The position numbers and the translations under genes were made by a program. A stretch of 64,000 bases of DNA from Eledone cirrhosa (lineage: Eukaryota). Within the stretch, counting starts at the first letter, position 1, and the number at the start of each line of letters is the position of its first letter. The notes beneath the pieces were generated by a model, which saw nothing but the letters and a program-made list of their open reading frames with translations, was not told the origin of the DNA and made no database searches. The stretch lies in contig OZ024741.1 of assembly GCA_964016885.1 (NCBI GenBank), positions 406,472,001 to 406,536,000 of the forward strand. Reading direction: 5' to 3'. Positions 1 through 59,676 of the stretch are shown here, one piece after another.

Positions 1-3000
1 ATGAATTAGGCTATGATACATATGGACTCCAGGTGTGCCATTTAATACAGGTGTGCCACAGGATTTTCACATGAATTAGGCTATGATAGATATGGACTCC
101 AGGTGTGCCATTTAATACAGATGTGCCACAGGATTTTCACATGAATTAGGCTATGATACATATGGACTCCAGGTGTGCCATTTAATACAGGTGTGCCACA
201 GGATTTTCACATGAATTAGGCTATGATACATATGGACTCCAGGTGTGCCATTTAATGCAGGTGTGCCACAGGATTTTCACATGAATTAGGCTATGATACA
301 TATGGACTCCAGCTGTGCCATTTAATACAGGTGTGCCACAGGATTTTCACATGAATTAGGCTATGATACATATGGACTCCAGGTGTGCCATTTAATACAG
401 GTGTGCCACAGGATTTTCACATGAATTAGGCTATGATACATATGGACTCCAGGTGTGCCATTTAATGCAGGTGTGCCACAGGATTTTCACACGAATTAGG
501 CTATGATACATATGGACTCCAGGTGTGCCATTTAATGCAGGTGTGCCACAGGATTTTCACATGAATTAGGCTATGATACATATGGACTCCAGGTGTGCCA
601 TTTAATACAGGTGTGCCACAGGATTTTCACATGAATTAGGCTATGATACATATGGACTCCAGGTGTGCCATTTAATGCAGGTGTGCCACAGGATTTTCAC
701 ATGAATTAGGCTATGATAGATATGGACTCCAGGTGTGCCATTTAATACAGGTGTGCCACAGGATTTTCACATGAATTAGGCTATGATACATATGGACTCC
801 AGGTGTGCCATTTAATACAGGTGTGCCACAGGATTTTCACATGAATTAGGCTATGATACATATGGACTCCAGGTGTGCCATTTAATACAGGTGTGCCACA
901 GGATTTTCACATGAATTAGGCTATGATACATATGGACTCCAGGTGTGCCATTTAATACAGGTGTGCCACAGGATTTTCACATGAATTAGGCTATGATACA
1001 TATGGACTCCAGGTGTGCCATTTAATACAGGTGTGCCACAGGATTTTCACATGAATTAGGCTATGATACATATGGACTCCAGGTGTGCCATTTAATGCAG
1101 GTGTGCCACAGGATTTTCACATGAATTAGGCTATGAGACATATGGACTCCAGGTGTGCCATTTAATGCAGGTGTGCCACAGGATTTTCACATGAATTAGG
1201 CTATGATACATATGGACTCCAGCTGTGCCATTTAATACAGGTGTGCCACAGGATTTTCACATGAATTAGGCTATGATACATATGGACTCCAGGTGTGCCA
1301 TTTAATACAGGTGTGCCACAGGATTTTCACATGAATTAGGCTATGATACATATGGACTCCAGGTGTGCCATTTAATACAGGTGTGCCACAGGATTTTCAC
1401 ATGAATTAGGCTATGATACATATGGACTCCAGGTGTGCCATTTAATGCAGGTGTGCCACAGGATTTTCACATGAATTAGGCTATGAGACATATGGACTAC
1501 AGGTGTGCCATTTAATGCAGGTGTGCCACAGGATTTTCACATGAATTAGGCTATGATACATATGGACTCCATGTGTGCCATTTAATACAGGTGTGCCACA
1601 GGATTTTCACATGAATTAGGCTATGATACATATGGACTCCAGGTGTGCCATTTAATGCAGGTGTGCCACAGGATTTTCACATGAATTAGGCTATGATAGA
1701 TATGGACTCCAGGTGTGCCATTTAATACAGGTGTGCCACAGGATTTTCACATGAATTAGGCTATGATAGATATGGACTCCAGGTGTGCCATTTAATACAG
1801 GTGTGCCACAGGATTTTCACATGAATTAGGCTATGATAGATATGGACTCCAGGTGTGCCATTTAATACAGGTGTGCCACAGGATTTTCACATGAATTAGG
1901 CTATGATAGATATGGACTCCAGGTGTGCCATTTAATACAGGTGTGCCACAGGATTTTCACATGAATTAGGCTATGATAGATATGGACTCCAGGTGTGCCA
2001 TTTAATACAGGTGTGCCACAGGATTTTCACATGAATTAGGCTATGATACATATGGACTCCAGGTGTGCCATTTAATACAGGTGTGCCACAGGATTTTCAC
2101 ATGAATTAGGCTATGATACATATGGACTCCAGGTGTGCCATTTAATACAGGTGTGCCACAGGATTTTCACATGAATTAGGCTATGATACATATGGACTCC
2201 AGGTGTGCCATTTAATGCAGGTGTGCCACAGGGTTTTCACATGAATTAGGCTATGATACATATGGACTCCAGCTGTGCCATTTAATACAGGTGTGCCACA
2301 GGATTTTCACATGAATTAGGCTATGAGACATATGGACTCCAGGTGTGCCATTTAATGCAGGTGTGCCACAGGATTTTCACATGAATTAGGCTATGATACA
2401 TATGGACTCCAGGTGTGCCATTTAATACAGGTGTGCCACAGGATTTTCACATGAATTAGGCTATGATACATATGGACTCCAGGTGTGCCATTTAATACAG
2501 GTGTGCCACAGGATTTTCACATGAATTAGGCTATGATAGATATGGACTCCAGGTGTGCCATTTAATACAGGTGTGCCACAGGATTTTCACATGAATTAGG
2601 CTATGATACATATGGACTCCAGGTGTGCCATTTAATACAGGTGTGCCACAGGATTTTCACATGAATTAGGCTATGATACATATGGACTCCAGGTGTGCCA
2701 TTTAATACAGGTGTGCCACAGGATTTTCACATGAATTAGGCTATGATACATATGGACTCCAGGTGTGCCATTTAATACAGGTGTGCCACAGGATTTTCAC
2801 ATGAATTAGGCTATGATACATATGGACTCCAGGTGTGCCATTTAATACAGGTGTGCCACAGGATTTTCACATGAATTAGGCTATGATACATATGGACTCC
2901 AGGTGTGCCATTTAATGCAGGTGTGCCACAGGATTTTCACATGAATTAGGCTATGAGACATATGGACTACAGGTGTGCCATTTAATGCAGGTGTGCCACA

Positions 3001-4488
3001 GGATTTTCACATGAATTAGGCTATGATACATATGGACTCCATGTGTGCCATTTAATACAGGTGTGCCACAGGATTTTCACATGAATTAGGCTATGATACA
3101 TATGGACTCCAGGTGTGCCATTTAATGCAGGTGTGCCACAGGATTTTCACATGAATTAGGCTATGATAGATATGGACTCCAGGTGTGCCATTTAATACAG
3201 GTGTGCCACAGGATTTTCACATGAATTAGGCTATGATAGATATGGACTCCAGGTGTGCCATTTAATACAGGTGTGCCACAGGATTTTCACATGAATTAGG
3301 CTATGATAGATATGGACTCCAGGTGTGCCATTTAATACAGGTGTGCCACAGGATTTTCACATGAATTAGGCTATGATAGATATGGACTCCAGGTGTGCCA
3401 TTTAATACAGGTGTGCCACAGGATTTTCACATGAATTAGGCTATGATAGATATGGACTCCAGGTGTGCCATTTAATACAGGTGTGCCACAGGATTTTCAC
3501 ATGAATTAGGCTATGATACATATGGACTCCAGGTGTGCCATTTAATACAGGTGTGCCACAGGATTTTCACATGAATTAGGCTATGATACATATGGACTCC
3601 AGGTGTGCCATTTAATACAGGTGTGCCACAGGATTTTCACATGAATTAGGCTATGATACATATGGACTCCAGGTGTGCCATTTAATGCAGGTGTGCCACA
3701 GGGTTTTCACATGAATTAGGCTATGATACATATGGACTCCAGCTGTGCCATTTAATACAGGTGTGCCACAGGATTTTCACATGAATTAGGCTATGATACA
3801 TATGGACTCCAGCTGTGCCATATAATACAGATGTGCCACAGGGTTTTCACATGGATTAGGCTATGATACATATGGACTCCAGCTGTGCCATATAATACAG
3901 GTGTGCCACAGGATTTTCACATGAATTAGGCTATGATAGATATGGACTCCAGGTGTGCCATTTAATGCAGGTGTGCCACAGGGTTTTCACATGAATTAGG
4001 CTATGATACATATGGACTCCAGGTGTGCCATTTAATGCAGGTGTGCCACAGGGTTTTCACATGAATTAGGCTATGATACATATGGACTCCAGGTGTGCCA
4101 TATAATACAGGTGTGCCACAGGGTTTTCACATGAATTAGGCTATGATACATATGGACTCCAGTTGTGCCATATAATACAGGTGTGCCACAGGATTTTCAC
4201 ATGAATTAGGCTATAATAGATATGGACTCCAGGTGTGCCATTTAATGCAGGTGTGCCACAGGATTTTCACATGGATTAGGCTATGATACATATGGACTCC
4301 AGGTGTGCCATTTAATACAGGTGTGCCACAGGGTTTTCACATGGATTAGGCTATGATACATATGGACTCCAGGTGTGCCATTTAATGCAGGTGTGCCACA
4401 GGGTTTTCACATGGATTAGGCTATGATACATATGGACTCCAGCTGTGCCATATAATACAGGTGTGCCACAGGGTTTTCACATGGATTA
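1..4488. repeat. 70-bp tandem satellite, ~64 copies (runs off window start)
   Basis: Unit ATGAATTAGGCTATGATACATATGGACTCCAGGTGTGCCATTTAATACAGGTGTGCCACAGGATTTTCAC recurs every 70 bp with only point variants; ends at ATGGATTA ~4488. Confidence 0.98.
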
Positions 4489-18552: not shown

Positions 18553-18788
18553 TGTATATATATATCAACATAACACATTTTACTCTTTTTACTATTAAGT
18601 TAAGGAACCCGACTAGAATTATTTTTTATATTTTCTTTGTTTTCCCAAAAGAAGTAAGTGACATAGTCACTACTTTAAAACTCATAGTGAATGGTCTTCT
18701 AAATGTTTTTAATTAAACATACAGTATATTGCCAAATATACTATACCTACATTCATGTATACATCGCTATTTCAGAGCACCAATATTA

Positions 18789-18862
<74 letters not shown>

Positions 18863-23928: not shown

Positions 23929-26410
23929 TTATATATAGGGTTTAAAGTTTTGGAACGAGTGTCGGAAGCGGTGTTGGCAATTTGCGAACACTTCTGATTT
24001 TTTATTAAGGAGATTATGTTTAGAGAAGATGATAGTATGGGTCTCTAGTAGACAGAGGTTACAAAATTTATCAGGTGGTTTGTACGATGTTGCACTACCT
24101 ACCACTTCCCGTTTAAGTGTATATATTTTATTTTTAGTTTTTAGATAGTGTATGTAGCTAGATAGTGAAGTGGAGTTGGCTAGACTGTGTTTTTTGAAAG
24201 AGTGGAGGTGCGAATTGTATCTAGTTTTGAAGCAGTTAGAAGTGGAGCCTATGTAGGTTTCAGAAGAGCTGTTAGTTGTGACTGTACATGAGTATATGAT
24301 ATCCTTGGTTAAGCATTTTTTATCTAAAGGGCAGGTTCTACTTGATCTACAGTTACAATTACTCTGGGTGCTAGTCTGCCGGTTACTATGCTGTGTAGAA
24401 GTTTGGAGGTTAGCTATAGGGTTATGGTTATGCGGGTTGTGGTACGCAGCGTTAATGTTTACACTAGTGCTATTACTACTATTTCCATTGATATTACGGT
24501 TATTTGTTATAATGTTACTTTGACTGTCATTTTGAATGTTATTTTGAAGGTTTATCGACCGTTGTGATTTAGTTTGTTGGAAGTAAGAATTAATTTTTCT
24601 TTTATTTGTACTAACTATGTGGTATGCTAAGTTAGGCGTAGTAGAGTATGAGATCTTAATAGTGTTTTTGTTTAAAAGGCCGTGGTACTTGTGGCCGGAT
24701 GGGAAGTGTTTATCTAGTAGTGAGAAGAAAGCCCTAGGAAGGTTGGTAGAGACGTTTAAATTGAAAGGAGGGTTGAAAAATGTATTATTTCTTCTTCTAT
24801 TTCTGTTTTTTATGTCTGGTGATTTGTTTCCTTTAATGTTCCTATGGTCATTTCTGTGGTGCGGGTTACTCTTGTTGTTACAATCCCTATTAGTGTGTGT
24901 GCAGTTGCTATTCTTATTATTAAATTTTCCCATGGACATGTTGTGTGAAATGATGTTGTAGCTATGTGTTTTTGTAGGTAGGAACTCTATCCCTGTATTA
25001 TGGCCTGATCTAGCTAATGCCTGATTATAATACTGCGAGTTATTGCTAAATGTGTTTATGTCATAGGATAGATTAGAGATTCTATTAGATACTCCCTTAG
25101 AGATAGAGTTCAATATAGATTTAGGGTGGTTAGACTTGGTATCTACGTAGATGAGTTTTTCATTAGGTTTGTGGAAAGGTGCATATATCATTGAGTCTAA
25201 GTAGAGTGTGGCGTCTAGGAAGTTGACGTTTTTGGTGTTTTTGTCCATGGTAATACTAAGGTTAAAGTTTTTGAATGTTTTGTGCAATAGTTTTCTAGTC
25301 CTTTCTATATTGAATTTTTTATAGTCTATAAGTAGAAGTACATCATCGCGATACAAACCACCGCTGAGGTACGGAAGTTCCCTGTGGATTAGGTTAAGTA
25401 AGTATAGGCCAACCAAATCAGTGACCTGCGCCGAGTCACTAGACCCCATAGTAATGTCGAAGTTGTTTTGCGTATCCTTGCGGGTCCATAATTGGTCCTC
25501 AAAGGTGATTATTGTTTTACGGGCCGCAAGTATGACATCAATCTGGGGTCTAGTCAAGTCACTATTGTCCATGGCCATTATAAGTGCCTTATTTAGTAGG
25601 ATAGGGGAAATAGAGGTGTAGTAAGAGTTGATATCAAATTGGATAAATTTTTTATCCTTGTTATCTATGATATTTTTGAACCATTCAATCACTTCACCCG
25701 TATTTCCCCATTGCTTAAGGTAAATCTTGTGTTTAATCTGTGGGATGATTTTGTCTAGGATTTTTTTACTGATAATGCCAATGTCAGACCTGGAGGGGCA
25801 GATTAGTCTAATCGAGGGGTTGCTAATGAAGTCTACCTTATGGTCCTTCAGAGAGAATCTAGGGGGGTTTGGGGTGTAAGGTTGTGTATGTCTCTGGAGC
25901 CCTAGTTTGGATACTATATTATAGCCTTCCATATTAATATCTTCTAAGTTTTTCATAGTGGTTTTTTTGTAGCTTTTATGTAGTTCATTATATATAAACT
26001 TTCTATACGTATTATAATCTAGGTTGTATATGTTATTAGTTTTGTCGGCATGTACAACAATTTTACTACTAGTTTTGAAGTCATTAATAGAGGTGCTAAG
26101 TTTGTTTAAGAAGGTGTTGTTTTTATTATGGTGTTTTTTGTATTTAATGTTTTTAACTAGTTTAATTAGGTCGTTTTCGAAGAGGTTTAATAGTGTGTTA
26201 TGAGGGGGGCTTCAATGTTTTAAAGCCGAAGGAGTCAAATTTGTTGGTGTTATTATCCTTGCCAGATTTGTTTCTATCATAATGGAATGTCCTCCATCTC
26301 ACTCTATTGATAAAGGAGTTTACACTGTTGATCGACAACTTTTCATATGTATTTTTGGTTGGTAAAGGTATGTTCTTGGTTGACATAGGGAGTTGGTCTT
26401 TGATCAGCAT
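23929..26410 (-). CDS. PLE polyprotein: reverse transcriptase + C-terminal GIY-YIG endonuclease (~827 aa, one frameshift near 26205)
   Basis: Supplied 675-aa ORF has QFDINSYY, FDITMGS, GGLYRDD, VNFLD, CNCx5CPLxxxC, IIY..YIGST..FKTRY..H and CNLC. Manual translation continues upstream in frame (LFENDL, ADKTNNIY) to a C6 run that joins the 26198-26410 ORF (STKNIP, RVRWR, FGFKT). Confidence 0.9.
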
Positions 26411-29050: not shown

Positions 29051-29122
29051 TGACGTACATGGGAGTCGAACCCACATCTTTGGTTATCCGGATCACTGTG
29101 CTACCATTTACACCAACACATC
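29051..29122 (-). pseudogene. tRNA-like sequence (tRNA pseudogene or SINE head)
   Basis: GATGTGT/GTACGTC acceptor with G-U pairs, D arm GTGT-AAATGGTA-GCAC, T arm GTGGG-TTCGACT-CCCAT; anticodon arm poorly paired. Confidence 0.55.
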
Positions 29123-42253: not shown

Positions 42254-42810
42254 GAGATTCTACAGGACTAGAACAGTTTCATTCTTTAGAAATCATCAGG
42301 AATCTGGGTATCAAAAAATAAGTATGGTATTTATAGGTCTCTACAAGTGGTAGGAGAGGGTGGGGAGCGGGATGGGTGTAGGTCATTGGTTGATAGAAAA
42401 GGGAATTCATTAAAAGCTAATTCTACAAAGCTATAATTTATTTTTATTTTTAGAGTAACAAAGGCAGAAAGAATTCTATAAACAGGTTCAGGATGGGGTG
42501 CCACTCCTTATTAATAAGTTTCTCTTAAGCTAACAGGTGTCTATAAGATCAGTGGGGGTCAGTCATAGTAGATAGATTTAAAGGAAAGGGAGATTCTTTA
42601 AAAGCTAAATTCTTTAAGGTTCTACTAAGTGACAAAGGTTTAGAGAATTCTGTAGACAAATTCAAAATATTGAGTGCATATCATACTATTATCTTCAAAT
42701 TTCTCTTAAACTATTCAACTATATGCCAAAAATCAACAGACACATTCACAAACACACTCGCTCACACACTCGCGCGCACCCATAAACACACACACATACA
42801 CATATACATA
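42253..42810 (-). mobile_element. ~560-bp non-coding element ending in a hammerhead (HHR 42255-42305); inverted copy of 52620-53179
   Basis: Near-identical reverse complement; this copy has a substitution in helix III (GAAACTG versus GAAACAG). Confidence 0.85.
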
Positions 42811-48519: not shown

Positions 48520-49992
48520 TTAGCTGTATACTTTGTGGAATGTTTTGTGGAATTTATGCAAGCAGATAGAAAACAAGTCAGTGCGTCTATTTATTATAGA
48601 ATCTAAATTAGATATAATGGTAAATTTTTCATTTAGACAGAGATTGCAAATTTTGGATAGAGAACTGTTCAAGTATGGAGACGCAGAAGAAACCTTCTTC
48701 CAAAAGATGCTATATTTAATATTTTTGTCTTTCAAGGACCATATGAGCTCTGATAGAGCCGTGTTGGTTCTTTTAAGTTTGTATTTAAAAGACGAATGAT
48801 GGTTATAAAGACGAGCTTTAAAAGAGGTGGAAGTGGAGCCAAAATAGGTGAAGGAATTGGTGTCAGTTGTAACTTTACATTCGTAAATTAAGTTTTTATC
48901 AAGACAATGGTTGTTGAGAGGACATTTATTTTTAACAGGGCAATTGCAATTGCGATTAGAGTGATTATTAACGAGTGACCTAGTGTTATCTATAGAAGGA
49001 ATTGGATTGGAGAAGTTATTTGCGATAGGAATAATAGTTTCTTGATTTAGAATGGGATTAAGAACATTTAGCGAAGTTGTGTTTGACGTTGTATTTGGGT
49101 TTGCAGAAATTAGCCTAGGGTTTACAATGACGTCGGGAGTACTTTTACTATTATTATGATATTCAGTGTTGGAAGGAAGAGATTTGGTATTTAGTATTTT
49201 ATTGTTGTGTTTAGAGATAATGTTGGAAATGTTGGAGGATGTAGAATAGGAAAATTTTATAGTGTGTTTGTTAAATATTTTACTATAGATATGTGAGGGA
49301 GGGAAGCATTTATTTAAGGCACTAAAGAATAATTTAGGAATATTGTTATTAATAGAGATGGAGAAAGGAGCATTATACCAGATTATGTTTTTGTATCTAG
49401 GTCTTTTATTAAAGTTATTGGAATGATCATGATTAATTATTCTACTGTAAGTTCTTCTAGAATTTGTTTCTTTACTATATTTGATTTTATCAGGATAGCC
49501 GTCTTTAGAAAGCGCGTTATTATAGTAATTGGCGTTAGCATCAAAGATGTTTTTATTAGAAGATAGGTTAGATATTCTTTTTCCAATATTACTAACTATA
49601 GCATTCTTGATATTAGTAGGATGGTTAGATTTAAAGTTAACATAATTTAGGTTCTCATTGTTTTTATGGTAAGGGTAATATAGGCCAGTGTCAAGATTAA
49701 GAGATACATCCAAGAAATTAGCTAGTTTGATGCTGTTATCAAATTCAATTTTTAGGTTATGTTGGTTAAAGAGATTACGTATATTGTTCTTAATAATATT
49801 AAGGTTAACTATGTTGCAATTTAAGATAGTAAAGAGTCCATCGTCACGATAAATTCCACCGCGAAGTTGAGGAATTTTCCGACTCAAAGAGTTCAAAATA
49901 AAGATACCAATTCAATCTGTCAATTGGGATGAATCGGATGCTCCCATTGTGATGTCGAAGTTGTTAGAGGTATCGGCTCTGGTCCAATATTC
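48520..49992 (-). pseudogene. PLE RT C-terminal half + GIY-YIG (458-aa ORF plus a short upstream piece)
   Basis: GGIYRDDGL, NFLDVSLNL, CNCx5CPLxxxC, LIY..YFGST..FKARLYNH and CNLC; upstream NNFDITMGASDSSQLTD* is in frame; homologous to the 23929 ORF. Confidence 0.9.
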
Positions 49993-52619: not shown

Positions 52620-53179
52620 ATATGTATATATGTATGTGTGTGTGTTTATGGGTGCGCGCGAGTGTGTGAGCGAGTGTGTTTGTGAATGTGTCTGTTGATT
52701 TTTGGCATATAGTTGAATAGTTTAAGAGAAATTTGAAGATAATTGTATGATATGCACTCAATATTTTGAATTTGTCTACAGAATTCTCTAAAACTTTGTC
52801 ACTTAGTAGAACCTTAAAGAATTTAGCTTTTAAAGAATCTCCCTTTCCTTTAAATCTATCTACCATGACTGACCCCCACTGATCTTATAGACACCTGTTA
52901 GCTTAAGAGAAACTTAATAATAAGGAGTGGCACCCCATCCTGAACCTGTTTATAGAATTCTTTCTGCCTTTGTTACTCTAAAAATAAAAATAAACTATAG
53001 CTTTGTAGAATTAGCTTTTAATGAATTCCCTTTTCTATCAACCAATGACGTACACCCATCCCACTCACCACCCTCTCCTACCACTTGTAGAGACCTATAA
53101 ATACCATACTTATTTTTTGATACCCAGATTCCTGATGATTTCTAAAGAATGAAACAGTTCTAGTCCTGTAGAATCTCAT
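52620..53179 (+). mobile_element. ~560-bp non-coding HHR-terminated element
   Basis: Inverted twin of 42253-42810. Confidence 0.85.
53126..53176 (+). ncRNA. Type I hammerhead ribozyme with complete helix III
   Basis: AGATTC-CTGATGA-T TTC TAAA GAA T-GAAA-CAG TTCTAGTC CTG-TA-GAATCT. Confidence 0.8.
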
Positions 53180-53200
53180 CTATATTAAAACTTTTATACT

Positions 53201-53336
53201 CTGCAATGTATTGAGTACCTTACTTACTTACAATGTATTGAGTACCATACCTTACTCCGGTTGAATCGGAGGTAAGTAAGGTACTCAATACACCTGCAAT
53301 GTATTGAGTACCTTACTTACCTCCGATTCAACCCGG
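53201..53336. repeat. 34-bp-arm hairpin (53259-53333) with two partial direct copies upstream
   Basis: GGTTGAATCGGAGGTAAGTAAGGTACTCAATACA-CCTGCAA-reverse complement; CAATGTATTGAGTACC occurs three times. Confidence 0.9.
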
Positions 53337-53342
53337 TATAAC

Positions 53343-53377
<35 letters not shown>

Positions 53378-53380
<3 letters not shown>

Positions 53381-56300
53381 TGGAATAAATGCTCTGAAAT
53401 AGCGATATATATGTGAATATAGACATAGAATATTCGAAAATATTCTGTATGTTTATAATAAACATTTTGAAGACCTAATCGCTATAGAATAGAATACGTC
53501 ACGTATTACAATTAGATTCTCGATAAAAGCAAGGGAAGTAATCTACGCGTTTCATTCTTGTTAGAAATCATCAGGACTACATATCCAGTGCTTTTATCGA
53601 GAATGACACAGCTAGAGACTTATAGAATACTTAGCTGTGTACAGGAACTGGTTTGAAAGAGCGGTTGCCGGTCCGGCAGAAATTAGAAATTGGAATAAAT
53701 GCTCTGAAATAGCGATATATATGTGAATATAGACATAGAATATTCGAAAATATTCTGTATGTTTATAATAAACATTTTGAAGACCTAATCGCTATAGAAT
53801 AGAATACGTCACGTATTACAATTAGATTCTCGATAAAAGCAAGGGAAGTAATCTACGCGTTTCATTCTTGTTAGAAATCATCAGGACTACATATCCAGTG
53901 CTTTTATCGAGAATGACACAGCTAGAGACTTATAGAATACTTAGCTGTGTACAGGAACTGGTTTGAAAGAGCGGTTGCCGGTCCGGCAGAAAGTCTCTAG
54001 CTGTGTCATTCTCGATAAAAGCACTGGATATGTAGTCCTGATGATTTCTAACAAGAATGAAACGCGTAGATTACTTCCCTTGCTTTTATCGAGAATCTAA
54101 TTGTAATACGTGACGTATTCTATTCTATAGCGATTAGGTCTTCAAAATGTTTATTATAAACATACAGAATATTTTCGAATATTCTATGTCTATATTCACA
54201 TATATATCGCTATTTCAGAGCATTTATTCCAATTTCTAATTTCTGCCGGACCGGCAACCGCTCTTTCAAACCAGTTCCTGTACACAGCTAAGTATTCTAT
54301 AAGTCTCTAGCTGTGTCATTCTCGATAAAAGCACTGGATATGTAGTCCTGATGATTTCTAACAAGAATGAAACGCGTAGATTACTTCCCTTGCTTTTATC
54401 GAGAATCTAATTGTAATACGTGACGTATTCTATTCTATAGCGATTAGGTCTTCAAAATGTTTATTATAAACATACAGAATATTTTCGAATATTCTATGTC
54501 TATATTCACATATATATCGCTATTTCAGAGCATTTATTCCAATTTCTAATTTCTGCCGGACCGGCAACCGCTCTTTCAAACCAGTTCCTGTACACAGCTA
54601 AGTATTCTATAAGTCTCTAGCTGTGTCATTCTCGATAAAAGCACTGGATATGTAGTCCTGATGATTTCTAACAAGAATGAAACGCGTAGATTACTTCCCT
54701 TGCTTTTATCGAGAATCTAATTGTAATACGTGACGTATTCTATTCTATAGCGATTAGGTCTTCAAAATGTTTATTATAAACATACAGAATATTTTCGAAT
54801 ATTCTATGTCTATATTCACATATATATCGCTATTTCAGAGCATTTATTCCAATTTCTAATTTCTGCCGGACCGGCAACCGCTCTTTCAAACCAGTTCCTG
54901 TACACAGCTAAGTATTCTATAAGTCTCTAGCTGTGTCATTCTCGATAAAAGCACTGGATATGTAGTCCTGATGATTTCTAACAAGAATGAAACGCGTAGA
55001 TTACTTCCCTTGCTTTTATCGAGAATCTAATTGTAATACGTGACGTATTCTATTCTATAGCGATTAGGTCTTCAAAATGTTTATTATAAACATACAGAAT
55101 ATTTTCGAATATTCTATGTCTATATTCACATATATATCGCTATTTCAGAGCATTTATTCCAATTTCTAATTTCTGCCGGACCGGCAACCGCTCTTTCAAA
55201 CCAGTTCCTGTACACAGCTAAGTATTCTATAAGTCTCTAGCTGTGTCATTCTCGATAAAAGCACTGGATATGTAGTCCTGATGATTTCTAACAAGAATGA
55301 AACGCGTAGATTACTTCCCTTGCTTTTATCGAGAATCTAATTGTAATACGTGACGTATTCTATTCTATAGCGATTAGGTCTTCAAAATGTTTATTATAAA
55401 CATACAGAATATTTTCGAATATTCTATGTCTATATTCACATATATATCGCTATTTCAGAGCATTTATTCCAATTTCTAATTTCTGCCGGACCGGCAACCG
55501 CTCTTTCAAACCAGTTCCTGTACACAGCTAAGTATTCTATAAGTCTCTAGCTGTGTCATTCTCGATAAAAGCACTGGATATGTAGTCCTGATGATTTCTA
55601 ACAAGAATGAAACGCGTAGATTACTTCCCTTGCTTTTATCGAGAATCTAATTGTAATACGTGACGTATTCTATTCTATAGCGATTAGGTCTTCAAAATGT
55701 TTATTATAAACATACAGAATATTTTCGAATATTCTATGTCTATATTCACATATATATCGCTATTTCAGAGCATTTATTCCAATTTCTAATTTCTGCCGGA
55801 CCGGCAACCGCTCTTTCAAACCAGTTCCTGTACACAGCTAAGTATTCTATAAGTCTCTAGCTGTGTCATTCTCGATAAAAGCACTGGATATGTAGTCCTG
55901 ATGATTTCTAACAAGAATGAAACGCGTAGATTACTTCCCTTGCTTTTATCGAGAATCTAATTGTAATACGTGACGTATTCTATTCTATAGCGATTAGGTC
56001 TTCAAAATGTTTATTATAAACATACAGAATATTTTCGAATATTCTATGTCTATATTCACATATATATCGCTATTTCAGAGCATTTATTCCAATTTCTAAT
56101 TTCTGCCGGACCGGCAACCGCTCTTTCAAACCAGTTCCTGTACACAGCTAAGTATTCTATAAGTCTCTAGCTGTGTCATTCTCGATAAAAGCACTGGATA
56201 TGTAGTCCTGATGATTTCTAACAAGAATGAAACGCGTAGATTACTTCCCTTGCTTTTATCGAGAATCTAATTGTAATACGTGACGTATTCTATTCTATAG

Positions 56301-56674
56301 CGATTAGGTCTTCAAAATGTTTATTATAAACATACAGAATATTTTCGAATATTCTATGTCTATATTCACATATATATCGCTATTTCAGAGCATTTATTCC
56401 AATTTCTAATTTCTGCCGGACCGGCAACCGCTCTTTCAAACCAGTTCCTGTACACAGCTAAGTATTCTATAAGTCTCTAGCTGTGTCATTCTCGATAAAA
56501 GCACTGGATATGTAGTCCTGATGATTTCTAACAAGAATGAAACGCGTAGATTACTTCCCTTGCTTTTATCGAGAATCTAATTGTAATACGTGACGTATTC
56601 TATTCTATAGCGATTAGGTCTTCAAAATGTTTATTATAAACATACAGAATATTTTCGAATATTCTATGTCTATA

Positions 56675-56678
<4 letters not shown>
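53378..56678. mobile_element. 310-bp HHR-containing tandem array (retrozyme-like): ~2 units on the minus strand, then ~8.7 units on the plus strand
   Basis: TGGAATAAAT at 53381 and 53691; AAGTCTCTAG at 53991, 54301, 54611, 54921, 55231, 55541, 55851, 56161 and 56471; one HHR per unit; (TA)n on both flanks. Confidence 0.9.
54008..54096 (+). ncRNA. Type I hammerhead ribozyme of the 310-bp unit (repeats every 310 bp, 9 copies +; cores at 53538-53580 and 53848-53890 -)
   Basis: ATTCTCGATAAAAGCA-CTGGATAT-GTAGTC-CTGATGA-T TTCT AACA AGAA T-GAAA-CGCG-TA-GATTAC-TTCCCT-TGCTTTTATCGAGAAT. Confidence 0.85.
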
Positions 56679-56719
<41 letters not shown>

Positions 56720-58444: not shown

Positions 58445-58715
58445 GTACAAGGAGAAAGAGAGAGCAATGAGAAAAGGAGAGCAAGGAGAGCAATGAGAAA
58501 AGGAAAGCAAGGTGAACAAGGAGAAAAGGAGAGCAAGGAGGGAAGGGGGAGCAAGGAGGGAAGGGAGAGGATGGATAAAATGAGAGCAGGGAGAGCAAGG
58601 GTAAAAGGAGAGCAAGGTGAGCAATGAGAAAAGGAGAGGAAGGAGAAAAGGAGAGCAAGGAGAAAAGGAGAGAAAGGAGTGCAAGGAGATAAGGAGAAAA
58701 GGAGAGCAAGGAGAG
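58445..58715. repeat. Purine-rich ~17-bp minisatellite (GAGAGCAAGGAGAAAAG-like)
   Basis: Direct reading. Confidence 0.75.
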
Positions 58716-58784
58716 GTTAAGGCAAATATTGCTCATGTTATGTTGGAAGCAGACAAATGTGAAGAAGAATATAATGGTAACAAA

Positions 58785-59676
58785 AATGACACCACTATTA
58801 CCACGGATATATACAATAAACACACAGACACCCATCAATATTTAAATTTTAAGTCGTGCCATTCACCTCATACAAAACGCAACATCCCATACTGCCTAGC
58901 CAGAAGAATTTGTACCATTGTAGAAGATACGAATACCAGGAATAAACGCCTAACAGAACTGACAGAATGTTTGCTCAAACAAAAATACCCATCTCTACTT
59001 ATAGAAAATGGCATACAGCGGGCTATAAAAACTTAGGACAACAACTTAGGACAACCCAAGGAAGAAAAAACCAAGAACTGGTCATACCATTTATAATGAC
59101 ACACAATCCATGTCACCAGAGTATCTTCAACACTGCCAAAGCAAACCTACCGATCATTGCTCAAAGTAATGAATTAAAAGGTTTAATCACAGACCGATCT
59201 TTGACTCTTAGTAAAAGACAGCCGAAAAATTTGAAGCAATTACTAATAAAGGCAAAGTTTGACCTTAACAACAAAGACCAATCATTCACTGTATCTAAAT
59301 GCAATGATAGTCGATGTGGCACATGTCAATCCATACACGCCGGTCAATATATGAACACAAACACTGGAAAAATATTCCCAAATGCAATATGAACTGCAAA
59401 AGCAGAAATCTGATTTACTGCATTAAATGCTCGAATTGTAAAGAACTATATGAACAAACTAGAAATGCACTATCGGAACGTGCACAGGTGCACCGACAGA
59501 AAACCAGAGACCCAAATGTCCGTCAGATACCCCTGAGTAACCATTTAGCAGCATGTGGTCAAAAAATATTTATAATATTTCCATTCTACAAATTACACAG
59601 CCCAAGTGAAATCAAGAGAAAATTTAAAGAAAAGAATTTTATTGATAAATTCCAACCCAAGCTAAATGAACAATAA
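58785..59676 (+). pseudogene. Neptune-like PLE 3' fragment (RT thumb, Cys-rich linker, GIY-YIG), frameshifted
   Basis: TDIYNKHTDTHQYLNFKSCH..HTKRNIPYCLARRI, KCNDSRCGTC and NCKSRNLIYCIKCSNC...H...HL across three frames. Confidence 0.8.

Follow-up and report, generated by a model that had tools for sequence, protein, structure and literature searches.

Structure of the array in the window

The window analyzed in this study, 64,000 nucleotides of the Eledone cirrhosa contig OZ024741.1 (assembly GCA_964016885.1, positions 406,472,001 to 406,536,000 of the forward strand), contains a retrozyme array with a 310-bp unit of 34% GC. The array consists of two diverging arms totaling 10.65 units, with nine hammerheads on the plus strand and two on the minus strand. 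The inverted arm (53377 to 53992, minus strand) is 616 bp or 1.99 units long and carries two hammerheads (CTGATGA from 53884 and 53574). The 3' end of this arm, at 53377, is of the long type, referred to here as B (monomer position 165-167), and its 5' end corresponds to monomer position 172. The forward arm (53991 to 56678, plus strand) measures 2,688 bp, or 8.67 identical units with nine hammerheads, and extends from monomer position 233 at its 5' end to a short, or A, 3' end at 56678 (monomer position 130). Monomer positions 1-310 are numbered from the predicted cut after 54068, and the predicted 310-nt monomer runs from cut site to cut site at 54069 to 54378 on the plus strand. An earlier note on this DNA had described eleven tandem units, a layout that gives way here to two arms meeting head to head with a 2-nt overlap at 53991-53992. 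Tandem Repeats Finder divided the region into 53377-53992 and 53991-56687; the first part is an exact reverse complement of the 310-bp repeat over 616 bp, while the second comprises eight perfect units plus 208 bp before mismatch begins at 56679, and the arms are 100% identical.

Both ends of the array lie in a (TA)n target, of which the left part occupies 53344 to 53377 and the right part 56678 to 56718. A 35-bp tail (monomer 131-165; 53379 to 53413, minus strand) is found at the left insertion end only and is missing at the right end, with an internal copy at 54199-54233. The description of the unit as non-coding, with identical copies, proved correct, as there were no mismatches across the eight full plus-strand units and no frame of at least 120 amino acids within 53377-56678. 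The array is not an autonomous PLE, since the RT and GIY-YIG ORF is missing.

Hammerhead ribozyme and predicted RNA folds

The unit contains a type I hammerhead, recognized from its sequence, its folds, sub-threshold Rfam matches and its variant pattern, that occupies 54032 to 54074 in the first plus-strand copy and recurs with a period of 310 bp. Stem I (54032-54037/54069-54074) has 6 bp including one G.U pair and is followed by the core CTGATGA (54038-54044), found with its stems in 11 of 11 copies in the array; stem II (54045-54058) has a U.U base (54045/54058), 4 bp and an AACA loop, and then come GAAA (54059-54062), the palindromic helix III ACGCGT (54062-54067) and the predicted cut after GUA at 54068, all on the plus strand. 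A perfect 16-bp helix (54008-54023 with 54081-54096, plus strand) encloses the ribozyme. The earlier note had described the CTGATGA/GAAA core, the 6-bp stem I, the 16-bp helix, the palindromic helix III and the cut site after 54068; its account of the core and stems stands but overlooked that stem II begins with mismatched U.U. The hairpins that it reported are also present, except that TGCCGG-A-CCGGCA closes only as 5 bp with a 3-nt loop. The Rfam scan of the window returned no ribozymes reaching the gathering score: Hammerhead_HH9 matched four full copies at 19.2 bits (E = 0.16, cut-off 52), but Hammerhead_1, the model suggested for this check, was absent among the matches listed for the array.

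Fold z-scores were -4.4 for the monomer and -5.1 for the ribozyme region. Helix III is predicted to form a single A-U pair around CGCG in the monomer (+5.0 kcal/mol as a hairpin), while between two copies it forms a 6-bp duplex (-7.5 kcal/mol). In work on other hammerheads, a weak palindromic helix III favors cleavage in tandem transcripts and shields the monomer circle (PMC4209133). Cutting should likewise be favored here in tandem transcripts, with the monomer circle protected. In circular form, the minus strand is predicted to fold more stably than the hammerhead strand (-77.9 versus -67.8 kcal/mol). Self-cleavage and the 310-nt circle are predictions for this unit.

Distribution of the family in the genome

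Short patterns were used as probes to search the 3.0-Gb genome, and the unit is by no means confined to this locus. A 30-mer from the ribozyme had 4,587 exact matches (control, 0), a count that takes in only haplotypes identical across that 30-mer, and patterns for the two end types had 637 and 606 forward matches, many of the reverse matches being listed twice. The 310-bp retrozyme family is thus dispersed, with young insertions estimated from the end-pattern counts at approximately 1,200. Loci for detailed comparison were sampled from ten regions around the first core-pattern arrays, 60 at the first listed B ends and 20 of the approximately 28 listed A ends without a listed B partner; all except the window fall within the first ~170 Mb of contig C1. 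L035, which duplicates L036, was dropped before counting, together with a short match of low identity in L097, the second copy of a local duplication in L062 and two small doubled-junction pieces in L043. With the window included, 91 insertions were parsed, of which 75 were two-armed and 16 single-armed (11 A and 5 B, one stopping at a gap and several retaining a stub of the other end). No LTR-like layout was seen among the 91.

Insertion anatomy

All two-arm insertions have their 5' ends in the center and their 3' ends outward. One 3' end falls at monomer position 130-139, a spread that reflects TA microhomology, and the other at 165-172, and the difference between A and B ends is the ~35-bp tail, present at one end only. 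The pairing of ends in the 75 two-arm insertions is strict, with 41 AB, 33 BA, no AA, no BB and one insertion cut by the edge of the fetched sequence. The target in the window and the flanks of the sampled loci is (TA)n or AT-rich; the sole clearly non-(TA)n site, at L034, has a target duplication of 12-15 bp, and duplications elsewhere are unreadable in (TA)n. The central 5' ends are scattered over the unit (132 ends, chi-square p = 0.24) without a pile-up at the cut site, as only 2 of 132 lie within 5 nt of it (4.3 expected). Arm lengths follow an exponential distribution (166 arms, mean 1,551 bp, maximum 14,079, KS p = 0.36), the longest array being L077 with 45 units, and the lengths of the two arms are nearly independent (rho 0.21, p = 0.09). 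A fold-back of a single cDNA was rejected because the longer arm can be either A or B (A in 28 of 63 insertions).

The central joints appear to have been made by end joining at short overlaps. Of 66 junction rows (L043 and L062 appear twice each), 45 lack filler, and these overlap by at least 2 nt in 32 cases (18% by chance) and by at least 4 nt in 13 (2.3% by chance). The remaining 21 contain filler (1-272 nt) or mismatches close by at which exact extension stops. The perfect 16-bp helix also serves as the central microhomology in three other insertions. The longest filler, 272 bp in L037 (3099-3370), corresponds to 5' sequence of a CRE-like LINE, and its joint is unique in the genome; the best 39 other matches to this LINE cluster on contig C25. 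Given the match to the LINE, the filler was rejected as a helper-derived piece.

One potential explanation for the inversions is that they are fold-back artefacts of library preparation or assembly. The central junction of the window was absent among the joints listed for four sequencing runs, and L033 and L062 adjoin assembly gaps, as an artefact would allow. However, the arms are unequal and independent in length, have different fixed ends and are bordered by unrelated unique flanks; L034 has a target duplication; and both end types are present in independent contigs from run X2, in which (AT)n loose ends occur at 54207 and 54238, equivalent to monomer positions 139 and 170. A two-arm layout has also been published for PLEs (PMC8557442), and an artefactual origin is accordingly very improbable indeed. 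The inversion is instead the strongest evidence on how the family inserts, and it supports priming from each target strand, at a pair of fixed internal sites, rather than one rolling run. The earlier note had proposed rolling reverse transcription of a circular RNA; the monomer-like template is supported, but the inversion was missed and with it the priming from both strands.

Relationship to PLEs and search for a helper

An inverted 5'-truncated copy, a tail of 30-40 bp at one end and (TA)n targets are features of PLE insertions described by Craig et al. 2021 (PMC8557442). Frangieh et al. 2024 (PMC11167929) report that a PLE protein, predicted to be dimeric, introduces nicks into both strands of AT-rich DNA and extends from them, and that reverse transcription begins at two internal RNA sites bounding the tail; hammerhead cutting was dispensable in vitro, where unprocessed RNA was the main substrate. 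The two-arm, tailed retrozyme insertions in (TA)n bear this published PLE signature. Among 16 loci of an intact Neptune-type PLE in the same genome (775-aa frames), all six two-arm copies have one short and one tailed end, the short end lying ~127 nt after the hammerhead and the tail being ~40 nt by manual count.

The 310-bp unit has no similarity to the 3' regions of three PLE families with which it was compared (Neptune-type, 1,216-1,217-aa and Hydra-like), and the genome contains many hammerhead-bearing families beyond these three. A profile search of the genome with four related tandem families found no helper among the matches listed, which TA repeats dominate. A very young PLE family (L154:2-2704; L250-L279), with many open frames of 1,216-1,217 aa and all 150 scored matches 100% identical over 115 aa, is a candidate helper by virtue of its age. 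It occurs as diverging pairs and as tandem full-length copies ~4.0-4.1 kb apart, and its paired arms have private variants in common (L263/L264, L278/L279). Within the window itself, PLE-like RT/GIY-YIG frames are found at 23929-26211 (minus strand; a young family with 830-aa frames), 48520-49911 (minus strand) and 58605-59676 (plus strand; the Neptune-type family). Pfam names none of the seven PLE-like frames in the window, and the clade names follow from reading their motifs.

Haplotypes of the arms and the nature of the template

Sequence variants allow the template of each insertion to be traced. Both arms have the same haplotype in 64 of the 67 insertions covering the marker region, compared to an average of 8.4 matches and a maximum of 16 when arms were shuffled (2,000 shuffles), and one of the three mismatches, L099, is an artefact of indel placement. 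The 76 well-covered insertions contain 34 haplotypes, of which 26 are private to one insertion. A private change found in every unit of both arms implies a bottleneck of one unit at the time of insertion, and the best reading is that a circle was read for several laps, which gives such a bottleneck directly. These haplotypes, together with the insertion anatomy across the genome, support the proposal of the earlier note that this is a young retrozyme mobilized in the manner of PLEs from a monomer, circle-like template.

Variation within arrays amounts to 162 calls in 253,549 bp (6.4e-4 per bp). Most of the 117 within-array variants (101) are restricted to a single unit and 16 occur in two or more, the latter in 8 of the 74 arrays with at least three units. 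Another 28 of the 74, with up to 24 units, are free of variants (one, L064, only by majority counting), and variant density is flat with array length (rho -0.12, p = 0.29). These patterns bear on a second explanation, in which short PLE-type insertions, with arms of about one unit each, were enlarged later by tandem duplication at the DNA level, the model of local amplification that Li et al. 2026 put forward. Duplication would account for private haplotypes common to both arms and for variants repeated among units in L036, L037, L052 and L077, partly at a spacing of 27 or 7 units. However, the predominance of single-unit variants, the long variant-free arrays, the failure of variant density to rise with length and arm lengths that are exponential and within the range of 5'-truncated PLE arms all speak against it, and we consider this origin improbable.

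Some arrays have a more complex composition. In L096 both arms change haplotype after the second unit (X,X then Y), L064 is mixed, both L036 and L073 carry a rare variant once per arm, in one unit, and repeated variants are scattered along the 45-unit arm of L077. A linear multimer template would account for these patterns, as would a joint template switch or later gene conversion. A third explanation is therefore PLE two-strand priming on linear RNA, either a multimeric read-through transcript of a source array that was left uncut or cut in part, or linear monomers linked by template jumps, with the hammerhead incidental to insertion. The unit-level patterns common to both arms of L096, L064, L036 and L073 are in its favor, as are the use of unprocessed RNA as the substrate in vitro (PMC11167929) and the report that one of nine Xenopus retrozyme dimers was cleaved in vitro (10.64898/2026.07.22.740005). 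However, a linear template leaves unexplained why 26 of 34 haplotypes are private and fixed in every unit of both arms, and how arms can still reach 45 units if each copy loses its 5' part. It is also at odds with the lack of run-off at the cut site, with central junctions that recur only via the 16-bp helix or local duplication, with the genome-unique junction of the single captured foreign piece (L037) and with a 310|1 joint free of array-wide heterogeneity. We regard it as possible but doubtful. No ligation scars were found at the 310|1 joint, and changes near positions 2-4 were rejected as scars because they are subfamily markers.

Fixed variants and RNA structure

Substitutions that are fixed across whole arrays differ in kind from those within arrays. 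At paired positions, 10 of 13 array-wide substitutions keep pairing, mostly by changing A-U to G.U, compared to 13 of 67 within-array substitutions (Fisher p = 1.1e-4). The change 276A>G is found on five haplotype backgrounds and 20A>G on four. Eleven of the 33 fixed sites fall inside the 43-nt ribozyme (p = 0.004), where they are located at N7, in loop II, at the base of stem II and at wobble-compatible sites of stem I; none of the 33 affects the 12 core bases, which by itself is not significant. Fixed A>G sites outnumber T>C sites by 10 to 4 (p = 0.06), a bias that is weak when taken alone. On this reading of the fixed variants, the one-unit bottleneck acts on RNA of the hammerhead strand. 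Selection on structure or A-to-I editing would each be sufficient to produce fixed changes that keep pairing.

Proposed insertion mechanism

Taken together, the evidence makes it probable that the array is a young non-LTR retrozyme whose insertion was primed on both target strands, with a PLE-type RT/GIY-YIG protein reverse transcribing one predicted monomer circle in a rolling manner. An existing array would be transcribed and cut by its hammerheads, probably as dimers via the 6-bp palindromic helix III, and a monomer would then be ligated into a circle, a step for which the data themselves give the one-unit bottleneck. A PLE protein, probably acting as a dimer, would nick the observed (TA)n target on both strands. 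One nick would prime at RNA position ~130 and the other at ~165-172, the ends being fixed in the insertions and the priming being suggested by the published in vitro work. Each cDNA would then be extended to a random length, observed to average ~1.55 kb and to reach 45 laps, before microhomology brings the two cDNA ends together, in some cases around filler, as seen at the sequence level in the central junctions.

A more specific version has roughly an even chance of being correct. It holds that the RT/endonuclease dimer binds a single ribozyme-made circle at two sites separated by 35 nt and rolls it into both nicked strands simultaneously, fixing RNA-level changes, including A-to-I edits in the helices, in every unit of both arms. 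If true, the insertions would be a genomic record of how PLEs integrate, and the same process would explain why autonomous PLEs in this genome occur as full-length tandem copies and as inverted ones; their paired arms likewise have private variants in common.

The arrangement can be compared with L1 twin priming, which also involves two primers, an inversion and central microhomology, with a second start that is variable and internal and with non-overlapping arms. In contrast, both starts are fixed here, 35 nt apart, and both arms span the whole unit repeatedly.

Comparison with known systems

The metazoan non-LTR retrozymes described by Cervera and de la Pena 2020 (PMC7229834) are likewise tandem units of 150-450 bp with low GC (<50%), each with a type I hammerhead and no protein. 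The weak palindromic helix III is shared with the axolotl HHR_Amex1 and the U.U at the base of helix II with HHR_Amex2, both from the same paper, which proposes reverse transcription of circRNA by a PLE. The family differs in its two arms, fixed ends and tail, and its circles are predicted; the word "inverted" is absent from the main text of PMC7229834. Vertebrate retrozymes are also regarded as non-autonomous PLE derivatives by Li, Clavereau and Pollet 2026 (bioRxiv 10.64898/2026.07.22.740005), on the evidence of co-occurrence and pLTR similarity and with a preference for local amplification by unequal crossover. The link made here is the insertion signature, with no pLTR similarity found in the three PLE families compared. 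The portion of that preprint considered here does not treat tails, orientation or inverted arms.

EN+ PLEs (PMC8557442, PMC11167929) resemble the family in the inverted 5'-truncated copy, the 30-40 bp tail at one end, the (TA)n target, the two internal RT starts downstream of a hammerhead and the extension of both strands. However, the retrozyme has no ORF; in those PLEs the arms are truncated copies, or a small number of copies, of an element of 3-4 kb, whereas the retrozyme arms run through many laps of 310 bp. Non-autonomous Chlamys elements such as MRC1 (PMC8557442) are also PLE-dependent and form multicopy head-to-tail insertions, but they resemble their autonomous family at the 3' end, and most Chlamys elements are described there as lacking hammerheads.

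The retrozyme class and the PLE hypothesis are therefore already published, while the two-arm retrozyme architecture was not found in print: neither two-armed, tailed retrozyme insertions nor arm-haplotype evidence was found in the openly available main texts searched on retrozymes and on PLE hammerheads, and subscription papers, supplements and notably the model figure of PMC7229834 may also bear on this. Until now, the entry of animal retrozymes into genomes has been a matter of hypothesis, either reverse transcription of circRNA by a PLE, put forward in 2020, or amplification of PLE ends within a locus at the DNA level, put forward in the 2026 preprint. The present family offers approximately 1,200 recent insertion events that are nearly identical and carry private markers, ties retrozymes to PLE enzymology by insertion anatomy, shows that both arms come from one template and favors a template of one unit. 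It also bears on how PLEs come by their inverted-copy and tail structure. With its mapped starts (130 and 165), the 310-nt unit would be a substrate for rolling two-strand TPRT in vitro.

Related families and other observations

Several related families occur in the genome. Directly to the left of the array lies a separate PLE-type family (window 52640-53343, with a copy at ~42270-42800 on the minus strand), whose end forms a long hairpin at 53257-53334. Its hammerhead stem II is near-identical to that of the retrozyme, a 25-mer from it has 9,826 exact matches, and it has two end types ~70 nt apart, often in inverted pairs; no consistent upstream ORF was found in 30 loci. An older sister retrozyme family (window 18566-18795; L103-L132) is ~80% identical downstream of the ribozyme, has a different hammerhead and equivalent A and B ends, and is represented by 2,621 matches of a 20-mer, with no PLE frame attached to the repeat in 30 loci. 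Two further tandem hammerhead families (L062, L092 and L105, with a unit of 461-467 bp; L031, L042 and L117) have the palindromic 6-nt helix III ACTAGT and different stem I pairs and are partly alignable to the 310-bp unit.

None of the sequencing runs listed as containing the 310-bp unit is an RNA dataset. Runs X1, X3 and X6, from three studies with three other organism labels, each contain one identical self-closing contig of 340 nt at a depth of 10-15 (window 53950-54300). Trace DNA of a high-copy tandem repeat would produce such contigs as readily as a circle; carry-over, a circle and interspecies transfer are indistinguishable as their source. Elsewhere in the window, a 70-bp satellite (1-4488; 64 copies, 97% matches) extends past the window start, and a tRNA-like sequence at 29051-29122 on the minus strand (35.4 bits) is possibly the head of a SINE.
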